A DNA stretch of 64,000 bases from Candidatus Eiseniibacteriota bacterium. GTDB lineage: Bacteria; Eisenbacteria; RBG-16-71-46. The position numbers were made by a program, and so were the translations under genes. Location of the stretch: the NCBI GenBank assembly GCA_041483195.1, contig JBGPFC010000002.1, positions 159,706-223,705 of the forward strand. Reading direction: 5' to 3'. How positions within the stretch are numbered: position 1 is the stretch's first letter; each line of letters begins with the position of its first letter. The notes beneath the pieces were generated by a model that saw nothing but the letters and a program-made list of their open reading frames with translations, did not search any database and was not told the DNA's origin. Below are positions 34,504 through 44,706 of the stretch, in pieces.

Positions 34504-35604
34504 ATGCGCAGCGAGGCCCTGGGTCGTGCGGTCGAACCCGAGGCTCCGGCGCGGCCCCCGCCGTGGCCGGTGCATGTGCTCGATGCGCTCGACCAGGCGG
34601 TCGTCGCCCTCGACCGAGAGCGCAAGGTCATCTACAACAACCGCCGGATCGAAGAGCTGCTGGGGGTCGAGGCCGGCACGTTCATCGGGATGGCCGGGTC
34701 GCGCCTGTTCCCAGGCGCCGAGGCGCGCTGGCTGAAGGGCGCCTCCCGCGAGCCGCGTGATTTCCGGTTGGAGGCCGAAGGGCGACAGCTCACGCTCAAG
34801 GCCGAGTCGCTCCCGATCCGCGACGAAGACGGCGATCTGATCGGCTCGGTCGTGCTCGCGGAAGCGATCTCCGAGACCGAGGACGGCGAGTTCCAGAAGC
34901 GCATCGACCGGCTGGTCTCGCTCGGAGAGCTCTCCGCGTACGTCGCGCACGAGATCCGCAATCCGCTGACCGGGATCCGCACCACGGTGCAGTTCGTCGG
35001 GTCCAAGCTCAAGCCACGCGATCCGAGTCGCGAGGACCTCGACGACGTCATCAAGGAGCTGGATCGAATCGAGCAGATCATCAATGGCCTGCTCATGTTC
35101 GCGCGCCCGCCCGCGGCTCGGCCCCAGCCCTGCGACCTCCACCAGGTGCTCGAGAAGACGCTCGCGCTGCTCGAGCTGCAGCTGACCGACGCCCAGGTCG
35201 TGCTGTTCCGCGAATACGCGGAGGATCTGCCGATGGTGTACGCCGATCCCGACCTGGCGCAGCAGGTGTTCCTCAACCTGTGCCTCAACGCGATCCAGGC
35301 GATGCCGGAGGGCGGCGAGCTGCACGCCGCGACCGGCGTGCGCCGCTACCGCACGCGGCGTTCGATGGTGGACGTCTCGTTTCGCGATACCGGCGTGGGA
35401 ATCCCCAGGGACCTCATGGAGAAGATCTTCGATCCGTTCTTCACAACGCGCTCGATGGGCACCGGGCTCGGACTCCCGATCTCGGTGCAGATCGTGCGCG
35501 AGGTGGGAGGGGTGATCACCGCGAAGAACAACCCGGGCGGCGGCGCGACGCTGCGCGTCTCGTTCCCGATTCCGGCCGAGTCGCCGGGACGTCCGGAGGA
35601 ATGA
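34504..35604 (+). CDS. Soluble PAS-domain sensor histidine kinase (NtrB-like)
   Basis: PAS domain, H-box AHEIRNPL, N-box NLCLNA, DTGVG, FDPFF and GTGLG; no TM helix. Confidence 0.92.
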   Translation: MRSEALGRAVEPEAPARPPPWPVHVLDALDQAVVALDRERKVIYNNRRIEELLGVEAGTFIGMAGSRLFPGAEARWLKGASREPRDFRLEAEGRQLTLKAESLPIRDEDGDLIGSVVLAEAISETEDGEFQKRIDRLVSLGELSAYVAHEIRNPLTGIRTTVQFVGSKLKPRDPSREDLDDVIKELDRIEQIINGLLMFARPPAARPQPCDLHQVLEKTLALLELQLTDAQVVLFREYAEDLPMVYADPDLAQQVFLNLCLNAIQAMPEGGELHAATGVRRYRTRRSMVDVSFRDTGVGIPRDLMEKIFDPFFTTRSMGTGLGLPISVQIVREVGGVITAKNNPGGGATLRVSFPIPAESPGRPEE

Positions 35605-35611
35605 GCTCGCG

Positions 35612-37003
35612 ATGAAGCTCTCGGTGCTGGTAGTGGACGACGAGCTGCTGATTCGCAAGTCGCTCGCGAAAGTCCTTCGCGCGCGCGGCTACGGCGTGGA
35701 TCTGGCGAGCACCGGCGCCGAGGGGCTCGAGAAGGTGGGCGAGGTCAGGCCACAGGTGATGATCCTCGACATGCGACTGCCCGACACGGATGGGCTGTCG
35801 GTCCTGCGGCGGGTGCGTCAGCTCGACCCCCTGCTGCAGGTGATCGTGATCACCGCGTTCGGCGATCTTCAGACTGCCGTCGACGCGATGAAGCTCGGGG
35901 CCTGCGACTTCCTGCGGAAGCCCTACGAGATGGAAGACATCGTGCTCGCCGTGCAGGCCGCCGGGCTCAATTTCCGGCAGGCGAGCGAGCTCGATCTCTA
36001 CCGCCGGCAGGCCTGGCGGCAATACTCCGACGAGGAGATCATCGGGCGCTCGAAGCCCATGGGAATCGTGCGCGAGCTCATCGAGAAAGTGGTGCGCAGC
36101 AAGGCCACCTCGGTGCTGATCACCGGCGAGAGCGGCACCGGGAAGGAACTGGTGGCGCGGGCGATCCACTACAAGGGGGATCGCGCCCAGGCGCCGCTCA
36201 TGGAGGTCAACTGTTCCTCCTTCCACGAGGGTCTGCTCGAGAACGAGCTGTTCGGCCACGAACGCGGGGCGTTCACCGACGCGGGGGAGACCAAGAAGGG
36301 ATTGGTGGAGCTCTGCGACGGCGGCACGTTGTTCCTCGACGAAGTCGCCGACATGTCGCTGCCCACCCAGGCCAAGCTGCTCCGATTCATCGATCACCGC
36401 AACTTCAAGCGGGTCGGGGGCGCACAGGACATCTCGGTGGATATTCGCATCGTGACGGCGACCAACAAGGATCTCGAGACCGAGGTGCGATCCGGTCGTT
36501 TCCGCGGCGATCTCTACTTCCGGCTCAAGGTGGTGAGCATCCATCTCCCGCCGTTGCGCGAGCGCGGCGACGACATCCTGCTGCTGGGGCGCCATTTCGT
36601 ACGCGAGTTCGCGCGCAAGTTTCAGAAGCGCTTCAACGAGATCTCGCCGGCCGCGGCCGAGATGCTGACCGCGTACTTCTGGCCTGGCAACGTGCGCGAG
36701 CTGCGCAACCTGATCGAGCGGGTCGTGCTCCTCGAAGAGGGCCAGCACCTGCTGCCCGAGCACCTCCCGGCCGAGTTCACCGGCCGGCGCACCGCGGGCG
36801 GCGACGCGCCGGCGAGCGGCGACGCGCTCTCGCTGCCAACGCTCGCGCAGATGGAGGCCGAGCACATCGCAGAAGTCCTGCGGCTCACGGCCGGCAACAA
36901 GAGCCGCGCCGCGCGCGTGCTCGGCATTTCCCGCCAGGGTCTCATCGAGAAGCTTCGCCGGCTGCGCATCCTGGAAGAGGGCGTTGGGCGTCAAGTATCT
37001 TGA
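35612..37003 (+). CDS. sigma54-dependent response regulator (REC-AAA+-Fis HTH)
   Basis: Receiver DD..D..K, GESGTGKE, ELFGHERGAFTDA, FLDE, WPGNVREL and a Fis-type HTH. Confidence 0.95.
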   Translation: MKLSVLVVDDELLIRKSLAKVLRARGYGVDLASTGAEGLEKVGEVRPQVMILDMRLPDTDGLSVLRRVRQLDPLLQVIVITAFGDLQTAVDAMKLGACDFLRKPYEMEDIVLAVQAAGLNFRQASELDLYRRQAWRQYSDEEIIGRSKPMGIVRELIEKVVRSKATSVLITGESGTGKELVARAIHYKGDRAQAPLMEVNCSSFHEGLLENELFGHERGAFTDAGETKKGLVELCDGGTLFLDEVADMSLPTQAKLLRFIDHRNFKRVGGAQDISVDIRIVTATNKDLETEVRSGRFRGDLYFRLKVVSIHLPPLRERGDDILLLGRHFVREFARKFQKRFNEISPAAAEMLTAYFWPGNVRELRNLIERVVLLEEGQHLLPEHLPAEFTGRRTAGGDAPASGDALSLPTLAQMEAEHIAEVLRLTAGNKSRAARVLGISRQGLIEKLRRLRILEEGVGRQVS

Positions 37004-37004
37004 C
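36990..37004. promoter_or_regulatory. Candidate enhancer (UAS) palindrome
   Basis: GTCAAG-TAT-CTTGAC inverted repeat with perfect arms, about 240 bp upstream of the predicted sigma54 start site. TTGACAC recurs at 37088. Confidence 0.4.
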
Positions 37005-37215
37005 ACCCACAAAGAAGTGGACATCTGTTGCTAACTTGAGTCGCGACATAGTCATGGAATCGTGATTCCGCGCAAGGTTCCATAAAATTGACACTTAGGC
37101 CCGCTTTCCACACCGCAGTCCCCAGTCATCCCCGCCGGTCCAGTCCCTCCTAGCAGCCCGCTGAATCAATTGCCGCAACTGGTTACAAGCCGCCTCGAGA
37201 TGACATCCGGGCTTC

Positions 37216-37231
37216 TGGCATGACTGCTGCT
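37216..37231 (+). promoter_or_regulatory. sigma54 (-24/-12) promoter
   Basis: TGGCATGACTGCTGCT has GG-N10-GC spacing and lies in an AT-richer intergenic region directly downstream of a sigma54 activator. Confidence 0.65.
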
Positions 37232-37380
37232 GATATAAAGGCGCAAGGCCTCACGGGGCACTCGGGAGCTCCGTGTCAGGGCCGCCCGGGCCGCGATCCT
37301 GGCGGCTGCCACAAGTGGATCGGCGAAGGGTCGTTCGCTTCGCCGCAGGGAGTTCAATCACAGCGAGGAGGTGATTCTCA

Positions 37381-37449
37381 ATGGCTGCCAAGAAGAAGGC
37401 TGCGAAGAAGAAGGGCACGAAGAAGAAGGCTGCGAAGAAGAAGAAGTAG
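37381..37449 (+). CDS. 22-aa lysine-repeat microprotein MAAKKKAAKKKGTKKKAAKKKK
   Basis: SD AGGAGGTGA at 37366-37374, ATG at 37381, 13 Lys codons (all AAG), TAG stop, and a terminator-like hairpin downstream. Confidence 0.75.
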   Translation: MAAKKKAAKKKGTKKKAAKKKK

Positions 37450-37477
37450 GACAACTGTCTGGACCTGGCACGTCCTT

Positions 37478-37518
37478 GGGGATTGGTCGGCTGCAATCGT
37501 CGGCCAATCCCCGCTTTC
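37478..37518 (+). terminator. Terminator-like hairpin after the microprotein ORF
   Basis: GGGGATTGGTCGGC pairs with GTCGGCCAATCCCC (14-bp stem with two G-U pairs), followed by a weak U tract GCTTTCT. Confidence 0.6.
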
Positions 37519-37561
37519 TACTGGAGCACTGGCCGCCTAGGGCGGAGGGAACAATCACCGG

Positions 37562-38128
37562 ATGCGTCCCATCTCATCGTTGAATGGATCCGCCGCCAGA
37601 GTTCCGGAGTGCCCTCCGGTCGCTCTCGTGCCCCAGCCCGCGCGCAAGAACGGCGCGGTCCGGCGTGAGCCGAACATCGCAGTCGGGTTCGGGCCCCATC
37701 TCGTATTCGACGGCACCGGCTGCCCGGTCGACCGTCTCGTGGATCTCGACCGACTCTACCGGCTGCTGGATAGCCTGCCCGATCGCATTCACATGACGAA
37801 GATCATGCCGCCTTACGTGTTTCGCCACGGCGAGCCGGGCGATCCGATGTACGGGCTTTCCGGTTTCGTCCTGATCGCCGAGAGTCACATCAGCCTTCAC
37901 ACTTTTCCCGGCCGTCACTACGTGAACGCCGATATCTTCTCCTGCGAACAGTTCGACGTCGAGGACGCGCTCGCCGCGCTCAAGTCCGCGTTCGCACCGC
38001 GCCAGACCGAGTGGAAGCTGCTCGATCGGGGCCGCGAATTTCCCAAGCACATCGCGGCATCGCGCGCCATCGTCGCGCGGGATCGCCGGCTGGTGGCCCG
38101 GGATTTGGGGCTGGAGGCATCGCGCTAG
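37562..38128 (+). CDS. Pyruvoyl-dependent decarboxylase proenzyme, AdoMetDC/SpeD family
   Basis: [23 protein letters not shown] autocleavage motif and DIFSC; RBS GGAGGGA. Substrate uncertain, so no symbol is given. Confidence 0.88.
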
Positions 38129-38157
38129 GGCTGGCCGTCTTCCTCCAGTTCGGTGCG

Positions 38158-38186
38158 GCGGCCCGCTCACGGACGAGCGGGCCGTT
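38158..38186 (+). terminator. GC-rich hairpin after the SpeD-like gene
   Basis: CGGCCCGCTC-ACGGAC-GAGCGGGCCG inverted repeat. Confidence 0.45.
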
Positions 38187-38297
38187 CGCGTGTGCGGCGG
38201 CGCGGCGGTCCCGCCCACCGCGCGTGCTATAGTCGCGCTCCGAGACGCGGCCGCACCTCCGCAGCGTGGCGGCACGTCCGCCGGACCCGAGGCCCCG

Positions 38298-42892: not shown

Positions 42893-43798
42893 CTACGCGC
42901 CGCTCAAGTCCGACGGCAGCGGACGGTCGCGCGCCACCATCGCGGCCTCGCCTCCCGCGAGCACCCCGTCCTCGACGACGATGCCGCGCAGCAGGGCCAT
43001 GGGCACCAGCTCGAAATAGACGTTGCGAGGCTGCACGCCGGAGGCCGGCGCATCCCACACCTCGGCCGGCGGCATCTCGTCGATTCGCAGGGCGGCCGTG
43101 GTCGCCGGAAGAAACTTGCGGCGCTCGGCGAGCGCGTAGACCGGCACCCCGTGCTCGCGCGCGGCGAGCGCGGCGGCGAACGAGCCCACCTTGTTGAGCA
43201 CCCCGCTCTCGGTCACCGCGTCGGCTCCGAGCCAGAGCATGCCCGCCTGCGATAGTACCAGCGGAAGCGCAGCGTCCACCACCAGCCACACCGGCAGTCC
43301 GGCCGCCGCCAGAGCCGCCGCCAGCGCTCGCCCTTCCAGCCCCGGCCGCCCTTCCGCCACCAGCGCGCGCGGCTCGCGGCCCGCCCGCTTCGCCTCGAGC
43401 AGCGCCTCGCGCACCGTGACGCTCGCGGAGAGGGTCGCGATCCACGCGCCGCGCTCGCCGAGCAGCGCGGTCGCGGTGCGCGCCACCCCCGCGCGCGCCG
43501 CGAGCAGATCGTCGCGCTCCGCGGCGCAGCTCCGCGCGAGATGGGCGCGCAGGTCGGGCGGCGGATCGCGGCGCGCGACGCCGGCCTCGGCGACTTCGAG
43601 CGCTCGCGCCGCGAGCTGATGCACCAGGCCCATGCTGGGCTGCGCGGCCTGCGCGGCACGCAGCCAGCGCAGCAGCGCCGCGCGCAGCGCGGGGGCGGCG
43701 CTCGAGGTGTCGGTCGCGATCCAGCCCTCGAGCTCGCCGAGAAACGCGAGCGCGACCTCGCTCGAGCCCGATCGTCGATCGTTCGCGAAGGCGCCCAT
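42893..43798 (-). CDS. eIF-2B alpha/beta/delta-like (sugar-phosphate isomerase fold) protein
   Basis: DRRSGSSE, QPSMG, TLSAS, EGRPGLEG, GADAV, NKVGS and NVYFELVP motifs. Confidence 0.82.
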   Translation of the reverse strand: MGAFANDRRSGSSEVALAFLGELEGWIATDTSSAAPALRAALLRWLRAAQAAQPSMGLVHQLAARALEVAEAGVARRDPPPDLRAHLARSCAAERDDLLAARAGVARTATALLGERGAWIATLSASVTVREALLEAKRAGREPRALVAEGRPGLEGRALAAALAAAGLPVWLVVDAALPLVLSQAGMLWLGADAVTESGVLNKVGSFAAALAAREHGVPVYALAERRKFLPATTAALRIDEMPPAEVWDAPASGVQPRNVYFELVPMALLRGIVVEDGVLAGGEAAMVARDRPLPSDLSGA

Positions 43799-43803
43799 GC
43801 GGA

Positions 43804-44457
43804 TCAGCGGGAGGGCGCGAGCCAGCGCAGGGAGGGGTGGAGAAACGCGAGCAGCGCGTTCACGCCCACCAGCGAGATCGCGATCGCGAGCGCGACCCCG
43901 GCGCGCGAGGCGACACGCGTGCCGCGCGTGCCCAGCGCCAGACCCCAGGGTCCGGCGCACGCGACCAGCCCGCTGCCGAAGTGCACGGCGGCCGCGATCA
44001 CACCCATCATCTGGAACATCATCCAGCCGGGCTGCGCGAGCTGCTTCGCCATGATCAGGAACAGATCGGTCGCGCCGCCGAGCCGCGCGGGGGAGAGACG
44101 CGTGCTCCACACGTGGAATACGACGTACACCACGAGGAACAATCCGGTGGCGCGCTGCGCGGGCTGCATCCATGGCGCCGGGAATCCGCGGGTGTCCTCG
44201 GCGGCCTGCCCGGCCGTCGCGACCGCGAGCCCGATCCCGATGTGGGCGAGCAGCGGCAGCACGATCGCGAGCGTCTCGAGCAGCGGGAGATGGGGAATGC
44301 GCCAGATCCGCGCGACCGCTCCGTTGAATGCTCCGGGGCCCTCGATCGCTTGGCCGTTCGTGAGCAGGTGGAGGAGCAGGAAGAGCCCGATGGGCACCAC
44401 GCCGGTGGCAAGCTGCAGCCGCTTCAGCGTTCGATAGGTGGAGTCGGAGACGGTCAT
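43804..44457 (-). CDS. Succinate dehydrogenase cytochrome b558-like subunit (SdhC-like), orphan
   Basis: Five TMs, GVVPIGLFL.LHL, QRATG and four spaced His residues typical of diheme SdhC. Confidence 0.75.
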   Translation of the reverse strand: MTVSDSTYRTLKRLQLATGVVPIGLFLLLHLLTNGQAIEGPGAFNGAVARIWRIPHLPLLETLAIVLPLLAHIGIGLAVATAGQAAEDTRGFPAPWMQPAQRATGLFLVVYVVFHVWSTRLSPARLGGATDLFLIMAKQLAQPGWMMFQMMGVIAAAVHFGSGLVACAGPWGLALGTRGTRVASRAGVALAIAISLVGVNALLAFLHPSLRWLAPSR

Positions 44458-44706
44458 CGGGCATGGGCCGCGGCGTGCGGCGCGCGGCACTATAGCAAGC
44501 GGCGGGGGTGAGGCCCAGCGGGCTCACGGGCGCGTCGTTGTCCCGGCCGCCGCGGGTGTGCTAGTTTTCCCGTCGCCTGAAGTCTTTCGCCCGTTGGAAC
44601 TTGGCGCGGGCGATCCATGTTTTTTCTGCGCCGGGGCGGGTCGCCTTCCGGCCCACTCCCTGCGCGCACTCTTCACGAACCGAGCGCGAACCCGGAAAGG
44701 CTCAGC

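Follow-up and report, generated by a model that had tools for sequence, protein, structure and literature searches.

A putative lysine/alanine polycation gene of 22 codons beside a sigma-54 activator in Candidatus Eiseniibacteriota

Organisation of the locus

The window, i.e., the whole stretch of DNA that was analysed, covers 64,000 nts of contig JBGPFC010000002.1 from a Candidatus Eiseniibacteriota genome. The first gene of a conserved unit (34504..35604, forward strand) encodes a cytoplasmic sensor histidine kinase in which Pfam recognises PAS, HisKA and HATPase_c domains. It is followed on the same strand by a gene (35612..37003) encoding an NtrC-type sigma-54-dependent response regulator, with a receiver, a Sigma54_activat domain, an AAA lid and a Fis-type helix-turn-helix (HTH_8) identified by Pfam and NCBIfam profiles, none of the NCBIfam equivalog cut-offs being reached. 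This activator gene adjoins a lysine/alanine (Lys/Ala) small open reading frame (sORF) of 22 codons at 37381..37449, also on the forward strand, which starts with ATG and ends with TAG. A sequence-only reading of this DNA had proposed that the sORF is a free-standing gene, and in agreement with this proposal it is surrounded by its own promoter, ribosome-binding site and terminator. The sigma-54 type of the promoter, the upstream kinase/activator pair, an invariant motif in the 3′UTR and the similar micro-ORFs of many phyla, all described below, were absent from that reading.

Next to the sORF lies an AdoMet decarboxylase gene (37562-38128, forward strand) and, a few kb away, an IF-2B-family gene (42893-44527, reverse strand), which we presume could encode a methylthioribose-1-phosphate isomerase. 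Together they hint at a polyamine or methionine-salvage theme in the neighbourhood, to which little weight is given because the linkage is not conserved.

The small open reading frame and its Shine-Dalgarno sequence

The predicted peptide is built of Met, four xxKKK repeats and a terminal Lys, and thus contains 13 Lys and neither acidic nor aromatic residues. Re-reading of the sequence gave the same 22-aa ORF as had been claimed, with 13 Lys in a 5-residue period, all encoded by AAG. Such AAG-only usage is largely expected at 70% GC, and because AAG represents 93.9% of the Lys codons genome-wide, the 13 out of 13 AAG codons of the window sORF are unremarkable. Among the ORFs of 10-60 aa in the assembly, a Lys content of at least 40% is otherwise reached only by two ORFs of 10 aa. 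The repeat is not part of a larger protein, as its frame closes at 22 aa, and the peptide matches no Pfam or NCBIfam profile at E up to 10. Elsewhere in the same genome, a frame of ~330 aa near position 163000 of contig C1 (reverse strand) has a Lys/Ala-rich C-terminal tail, and a frame of ~113 aa at 14997-15548 of contig C51 (forward strand) is Lys/Ala-rich in its N-terminal half.

The AAG repeats contain no stops and leave all six frames open over the sORF, hence the case for the sORF frame rests on the Shine-Dalgarno (SD) sequence, the start, the stop and the pattern of insertions and deletions. The alternative frames were rejected, as their lengths range from 9 to 540 aa among the loci and none is consistently conserved.

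The SD sequence covers 10 nts (37366..37375), 8 positions of which are invariant in 24 out of 24 aligned sequences. It had been described as near-perfect; a 9-nt SD is indeed found at 37366-37374, 6 nts before the ATG, and the complementary run reaches 10 nts. This complementarity is judged against the universal 3′ end of the 16S rRNA, the 16S rRNA gene not being assembled in this genome. The 4.17-Mb assembly contains 7 copies of the SD 10-mer, and the sORF is one of the two cases in which it precedes a start codon at the spacing of a ribosome-binding site. The expression signals, previously called strong, can be considered exceptional. From the sequence, translation of the sORF is strongly implied.

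Conservation across the phylum

The intergenic DNA at 37004-37561 matches 40 of 41 related genomes, including 24 of 24 other genomes of the window's family, and its conserved core extends from the SD to the terminator. Of the 35 loci first fetched, 34 have, behind the same SD, an sORF of 17-27 aa that is rich in Lys. A further 13 loci, from families f16, f17, f18 and f5, yielded an sORF of 15-37 aa in 12 cases. In total, 46 out of 48 loci of the phylum carry a Lys-rich sORF of 15-37 aa at the same position and with the same ribosome-binding site, the exceptions being loci L042 and L176 (45 out of 47 if locus L038, from the unpublished genome G026, is left aside). The sequence-only reading had staked its claim on the absence of frameshifts, stops and loss of the SD or ATG in orthologues, and these 46 of 48 loci have indeed kept SD and start codon as well as a frame free of interruptions. 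Such locus counts overstate independence, because the genomes counted are related.

A scan of 206 genomes of the phylum with the reference DNA gave 171 matches at E up to 1e-6. By family, matches were obtained for 85 of 88 genomes in f1, 3 of 3 in f2, 10 of 10 in f3 and 37 of 41 in f18, while many of the matches in the remaining families correspond to Lys/Ala repeats within larger genes.

The changes observed among orthologues follow the reading frame. The length of the sORF changes by whole codons only, whereas the spacers on either side of it (SD to ATG, stop to 3′ motif) change by numbers that are not multiples of 3. Lys codons show no variation at positions 1, 2 and 3, and in the non-Lys codons 2, 5 and 7 of 8 columns are variable at codon positions 1, 2 and 3, respectively. 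Ala is replaced by Gly, Thr, Val, Ser or Pro. Arg stands in place of Lys at six positions, and three of these are CGC codons, which differ from AAG at all three bases. In 34 orthologues, the Lys codons are AAG in 444 cases and AAA in none, which is notable but, given the 93.9% of AAG genome-wide, a modest excess among sequences that are related and not independent. AAG-only usage fits the known avoidance of slippery A-runs. Among the Ala codons of the sORFs, GCT accounts for 56 out of 198 (28%), compared with 4.2% genome-wide, and it occurs at recurring fixed positions.

Low-complexity peptides preclude a proof of homology, hence the argument for homology within the phylum rests on synteny. 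Taken from the conservation of its sequence and position, the sORF appears to be a conserved gene and not a chance frame.

Promoter, leader and transcript

A sigma-54-type promoter with -24 GG and -12 GC elements at canonical spacing is predicted at 37216..37230 (forward strand). The motif is found 118-168 nts upstream of the ATG in 24 of the 25 loci of the window's family (it is absent in L026), and none of its -24 and -12 core bases varies among the 24 sequences of alignment A1. By simple arithmetic, the seven specified bases would be expected by chance ~0.04 times per 600 nts. The genome encodes the corresponding sigma factor, since a 485-aa frame, rpoN, matches Sigma54_DBD with 213.6 bits. 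In family f3, the promoter motif is located ~500-550 nts upstream of the ATG, ahead of a receiver-only gene, in 5 of 7 loci, the other two being cut by contig ends. It was not found in f2 (2 loci, 420 nts scanned) nor in f18 (6 loci, 600 nts scanned).

Further upstream, conserved non-coding blocks seen in the family loci at 36990..37124 form a candidate enhancer region for binding of the activator, and the block at 37066-37124 is matched separately in genome G003. A perfect palindrome of 15 nts (36990-37004) spans the stop codon of the activator gene and is kept in most loci of the family.

Downstream of the promoter, conservation and hairpins define a predicted structured 5′ leader of ~138 nts (37243..37380, forward strand), if transcription starts where the promoter predicts. 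BLAST similarity to relatives begins at 37241-37245, approximately at the start expected for a sigma-54 transcript. Between 37243 and 37365, the leader contains conserved hairpins with compensatory changes in alignment A1, one of them with a conserved 6-nt loop; they may serve stability or regulation.

RNA data were available as assembled contigs, not reads, of four metatranscriptome runs. Run X12 contains a contig of 211 nts over 37254-37464 with 3 differences, X14 a contig of 166 nts over 37245-37410 with 7 differences, X19 a contig of 151 nts over 37264-37414, and X23 a more divergent contig over 37380-37513. The starts at 37245, 37254 and 37264, in near-identical contigs of three studies, fall 15-35 nts past the -12 element and no more than 20 nts from the predicted start. 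Together with the one contig that stops at the terminator hairpin, they provide a weak hint of a discrete RNA of ~270 nts, DNA carry-over being possible. The flanks (36900-37244 and 37520-37800) returned no RNA contigs, an absence which carries no weight as evidence.

Over 37380-37450, the same libraries contain many short contigs, with a depth of up to 1356, that match the AAG-rich core only, one of which has a loose end with another SD-plus-start context. They derive from Lys/Ala-coding sequences of other organisms and were rejected as evidence for the sORF. Such sequences of other organisms are seemingly abundant in soil and freshwater metatranscriptomes.

The order of these elements suggests that the sORF forms a separate transcription unit, composed of a sigma-54 promoter, a leader, an SD, 22 codons, a 3′ motif and a terminator.

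The 3′UTR motif and the terminator

Following the stop codon, a motif of 15 nts (37461..37475, forward strand), which can fold into a stem of 4 bp and a loop of 7 nts, is identical at 15 of 15 positions in 24 of 24 sequences of the family and occurs once in the genome. Loci of two other families share its 9-nt core (37467-37475), and in f18 a one-sided change of the motif keeps the stem as a wobble pair. The 3′ half of the motif and the SD are complementary at 7 of 8 positions, the eighth being a conserved G-G mismatch, and they are paired with each other in the RNAalifold structure. In single-sequence folds, this pairing is favoured in 3 of 34 transcripts and partial in 3 more. No covariation is seen, because both partners are invariant. 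With no covariation and little support from single sequences, the pairing was rejected as a proven switch. The motif probably tunes the translation or the stability of the mRNA.

The motif is followed by an intrinsic terminator (37477..37520, forward strand), formed by a 15-bp hairpin and a T-rich tract. The sequence of the hairpin differs among families while its stem is kept and the motif is unchanged. One contig of the RNA libraries ends at 37513, at the terminator hairpin.

Association with the kinase/activator pair

In 32 of 35 loci the activator gene directly precedes the sORF, and the three exceptions are cut by contig ends or devoid of the sORF. Downstream, uvrA is found in 31 of 35 loci (the misses correspond to contig ends or to L042, which has no sORF), and uvrA is separated from the sORF by the AdoMet decarboxylase gene in only 11 of the 35. 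Activator and sORF are not direct neighbours in families f2, f3, f16, f17 and f18, where a receiver-only gene separates them.

Five genomes, of families f4, f7, f8, f10 and f11, gave no DNA match. Each of them has one match to the activator with 55-58% identity, against 43-48% for the best listed paralogue, and in 5 out of 5 the orthologous kinase gene is located upstream. Downstream of the activator, on the same strand, these genomes carry a longer, Lys/Arg-rich repeat ORF of ~42 to 60 aa, one of which runs off its contig. By gene order, kinase, activator and basic-repeat ORF thus stay together across the phylum. It is worth noting that NtrC-type activators form an unusually large set in genomes G038, G041, G054, G069 and G076, with 16-28 matches per genome at E up to 1e-60.

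Across the phylum, the peptide drifts from 15 to about 60 aa, with a varying content of Lys/Arg and of Ala/Gly/Thr/Val. Because a basic repeat peptide, of whichever sequence, occupies the slot after the sensor pair in every case, it is likely that selection maintains protein-level charge and that the peptide is the output of the module. We consider this occupancy of the slot the strongest argument for both.

Similar micro-ORFs in other phyla

When species genomes were scanned for the 3′ end that the sORFs share, at least 120 stretches were obtained, 80 of which (L043-L122) came with DNA and were classed as loci. The 3′ motif is found in 19 of these 80 listed loci, always together with the promoter motif; their records bear the title Candidatus Eisenbacteria in 14 cases and only "bacterium" in 5. 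Another 33 consist of a stop-to-stop frame of at most 50 aa, and the rest comprise 12 loci whose frames have 51-100 aa, 13 in which the match is the tail of a longer or open frame, and 3 cut loci. The 33 listed records with short frames are titled Alphaproteobacteria, Acidobacteriota, Planctomycetota, Verrucomicrobiota, Bacteroidota, Rokubacteria and one thaumarchaeon. In addition, two listed Gemmatimonadota records of the 51-100-aa class contain a comparable ORF of 22 aa, preceded by a ribosome-binding site. Among the matches listed, identical peptides recur among species of a group, for example in three Chryseolinea records. The 61-aa ORF of one Flavobacteriales record (L052) ends in the same Lys/Ala tail, preceded by a small basic N-terminal part, and the resulting protein, in our estimation, may resemble the ribosomal protein THX.

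A hairpin with a T-run follows the micro-ORF in 29 of the 33 listed loci, a scan which discriminates poorly because the opposite-strand control scored 19 of 33. The 3′ motif and the sigma-54 promoter are absent from all 33 listed loci of this non-motif class, and none of them has uvrA within 400 nts. Among the matches listed, uvrA or AdoMet decarboxylase genes stand beside Lys/Ala micro-ORFs only in Eisenbacteria-type loci, hence this synteny provides no functional clue elsewhere.

By exact look-up, ten of the peptides, including that of the window, are absent from a collection of 15 billion proteins. The partial texts returned by a literature search contain no description of free-standing Lys/Ala micropeptide genes in bacteria, and those returned for the name of the phylum are metagenomic surveys only. 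Judged by their sequences, the micro-ORFs of other phyla seem comparable to the sORF and may be either homologous or convergent.

Comparison with known systems

Lys/Ala-rich tails are known from the C-terminal domain of histone H1, the chlamydial Hc1 and Hc2, AlgP of Pseudomonas and the mycobacterial HupB. The sORF peptide shares with these tails its composition and its short-period repeats of Lys/Ala(/Thr/Pro), as well as, presumably, electrostatic binding of nucleic acids. However, the nucleoid proteins are ~100 aa or more in length and their tail is usually attached to a folded domain, whereas here the repeat stands alone, in 22 aa and with its own promoter and terminator. Because the repeat is alone and no profile matches, the sORF falls outside the H1/Hc1/AlgP/HU-type class. 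Similarly, the small basic ribosomal proteins bTHX, bS22, bL37 and bL36 resemble the peptide in size, charge, strong translation signals and a tendency to be missed by annotation. Unlike them, the sORF peptide is of low complexity, has no family match and lacks Arg or aromatic anchor residues, and its gene has a conditional sigma-54 promoter and a variable length.

As for its genetic setting, the sORF seems to be a micro-gene reserved as output for the sensor-regulator pair next to it, a trait shared with small proteins induced by two-component systems such as MgrB under PhoQP. In contrast to MgrB, the peptide is neither hydrophobic nor membrane-bound but a sequence-unspecific polycation, and its gene would depend on sigma-54 rather than sigma-70. 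The small RNAs GlmY (with GlrR) and Qrr (with LuxO) are also short, terminator-bounded transcripts of a -24/-12 promoter beside an NtrC-type activator, with a conserved non-coding motif. The sORF transcript differs in carrying a conserved, SD-linked coding ORF, in having no Rfam match and in coming from an assembly in which Hfq was not found. The attenuator leader peptides hisL and trpL share a short ORF dominated by one codon and followed by a terminator, but the sORF is not followed by a lysine-related operon, no antiterminator is seen in the consensus fold and the downstream gene is variable. Finally, the available part of one report on the cfiA element of Bacteroides fragilis mentions an "Lrp" ORF, a lysine-rich peptide of unknown role (PMC9138018). 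This ORF, likened to the sORF by its description and not by its sequence, has a different context, i.e., a mobile element with acetyltransferase genes (PMC9138018). By analogy, the layout of the sORF unit seems closest to that of sigma-54-driven small-RNA genes located beside their activators.

Proposed function and alternative explanations

The explanation we prefer, which we rate at about an even chance, is that the sORF is a genuine and efficiently translated micro-gene whose product, an inducible Lys/Ala polycation, would act by charge on polyanions. The peptide is predicted to be an unstructured polycation of 22 residues with a charge of roughly +13, and from this composition we infer that it binds nucleic acids or other polyanions, polyphosphate being the alternative named in the sequence-only reading. 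The kinase would sense a cytoplasmic signal through its PAS domain and phosphorylate the activator, which would then open the sigma-54 promoter and provoke a burst of peptide. By charge alone, the peptide could coat rRNA, mRNA, DNA or another polyanion, working in the manner of the H1-type or HU-type Lys/Ala tails or as a gene-encoded polyamine. Up to the promoter, this chain appears to be supported by the anatomy of the locus and its conservation.

Two alternatives would deprive the peptide of its central role. According to one of them, the sORF is a chance ORF inside a conserved non-coding region, as could be imagined from AAG repeats that are open in six frames and from the scarcity of stops in high-GC DNA. 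This is scarcely credible in view of the constant spacing between SD and start and the in-frame stop of 46 out of 48 loci, and of insertions and deletions which, within the ORF, comprise whole codons only. According to the other, the RNA is bifunctional or mainly regulatory, with the 3′ motif as its functional core and the peptide as a secondary product or a by-product; the motif would either pair in cis with the SD and throttle translation, or serve in trans as the seed of a 3′UTR-derived small RNA directed against SD-like regions. Such an RNA-level function could be the main one, because conservation within the transcript is highest in the non-coding motif of 15 nts and not in the peptide. 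The motif is more conserved than any codon spacer, is unique in the genome and has its 9-nt core in other families, its 7 of 8 pairing with the SD is recovered by RNAalifold, and together with the terminator it has the layout of a 3′UTR small RNA. However, the pairing shows no covariation and has a high probability in only 3 of 34 transcripts (partial in 3), the region 36500-38200 has no Rfam match at E up to 1, the Hfq profile was not found in the 96.8%-complete assembly and the genome contains no 11-nt complement of the motif elsewhere. Moreover, the in-frame insertions and deletions, the Lys-to-Arg changes and the conserved start and stop would be left unexplained. A mainly regulatory RNA is hence unlikely, and it is compatible with, rather than exclusive of, a functional peptide. 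The related idea that the AAG runs act as an Hfq-binding triplet repeat was dismissed as unsupported, Hfq not being found.

The remaining alternatives accept the peptide and assign it another task. It could be a ribosome-associated peptide, i.e., a conditional small ribosomal or hibernation-type factor with specific binding to the rRNA, which would be a special case of polyanion binding. Late-discovered ribosomal proteins are typically tiny and extremely basic, the SD of the sORF is very strong, and the Flavobacteriales protein described above joins a small basic N-terminal part to a Lys/Ala tail. We nevertheless consider this role improbable, as the peptide matches no ribosomal family of Pfam or NCBIfam, its gene lies outside any ribosomal operon (its neighbours are the kinase, the activator, AdoMet decarboxylase and uvrA), sigma-54 control implies conditional and not constitutive expression, and its length drifts freely, unlike that of proteins fitting a defined rRNA pocket. 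A lysine-sensing leader peptide, attenuating read-through into the AdoMet decarboxylase or uvrA gene, would account for 13 Lys codons out of 22 followed by a terminator and by genes of the same strand. This attenuator reading was rejected, and we give it very little credence, since it fails on the downstream genes and is not supported by the structures seen. The gene that follows is AdoMet decarboxylase in 11 of 35 loci and otherwise uvrA, neither of which relates to lysine supply; no conserved antiterminator is seen in the consensus fold or by eye in the 3′ regions; the arms of the terminator differ among families while the motif is constant; the stop codon lies 27 nts ahead of the terminator stem; and the sORF of sister families stands at the end of an operon and is not a leader. 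Equally far-fetched is a feedback connector that would modulate its own kinase or activator in the manner of MgrB. The strict linkage of the sORF to the kinase and activator across the phylum speaks in its favour. However, known connectors are membrane-embedded or folded and act in a sequence-specific way, whereas hydrophobic segments are absent from this peptide, which accommodates large changes of length and composition.

Implications

The sORF may thus belong to a class of tiny polycation genes that occurs in many phyla and has never been annotated, ORFs this short being discarded by gene callers and hidden by low-complexity filters. A broader proposal, possible but on balance doubtful, is that of a phylum-wide system in which a sensor kinase and a sigma-54 activator have a gene-encoded polycation as their main or only output, a ribosomal counterpart of polyamines and protamine. 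This system would be one lineage of a cross-phylum class of Lys/Ala micropeptides with their own terminators, unrecorded by annotation pipelines and maybe abundantly expressed in soils and sediments.

The carriers of the sORF are uncultured, the phylum itself being known solely from metagenomes, and the locus gives a first indication of what one of its signalling modules may do. Its strict two-component pairing also offers an experimental handle, with one promoter, one activator and one product of 22 aa, and the invariant 3′ motif complementary to the SD poses a separate and testable puzzle of translational control. If the peptide is made, these bacteria would raise their cytoplasmic polycation content by regulated translation and not by polyamine synthesis, which would have a bearing on the compaction of the nucleoid, the stabilisation of ribosomes and RNA, and survival under stress.
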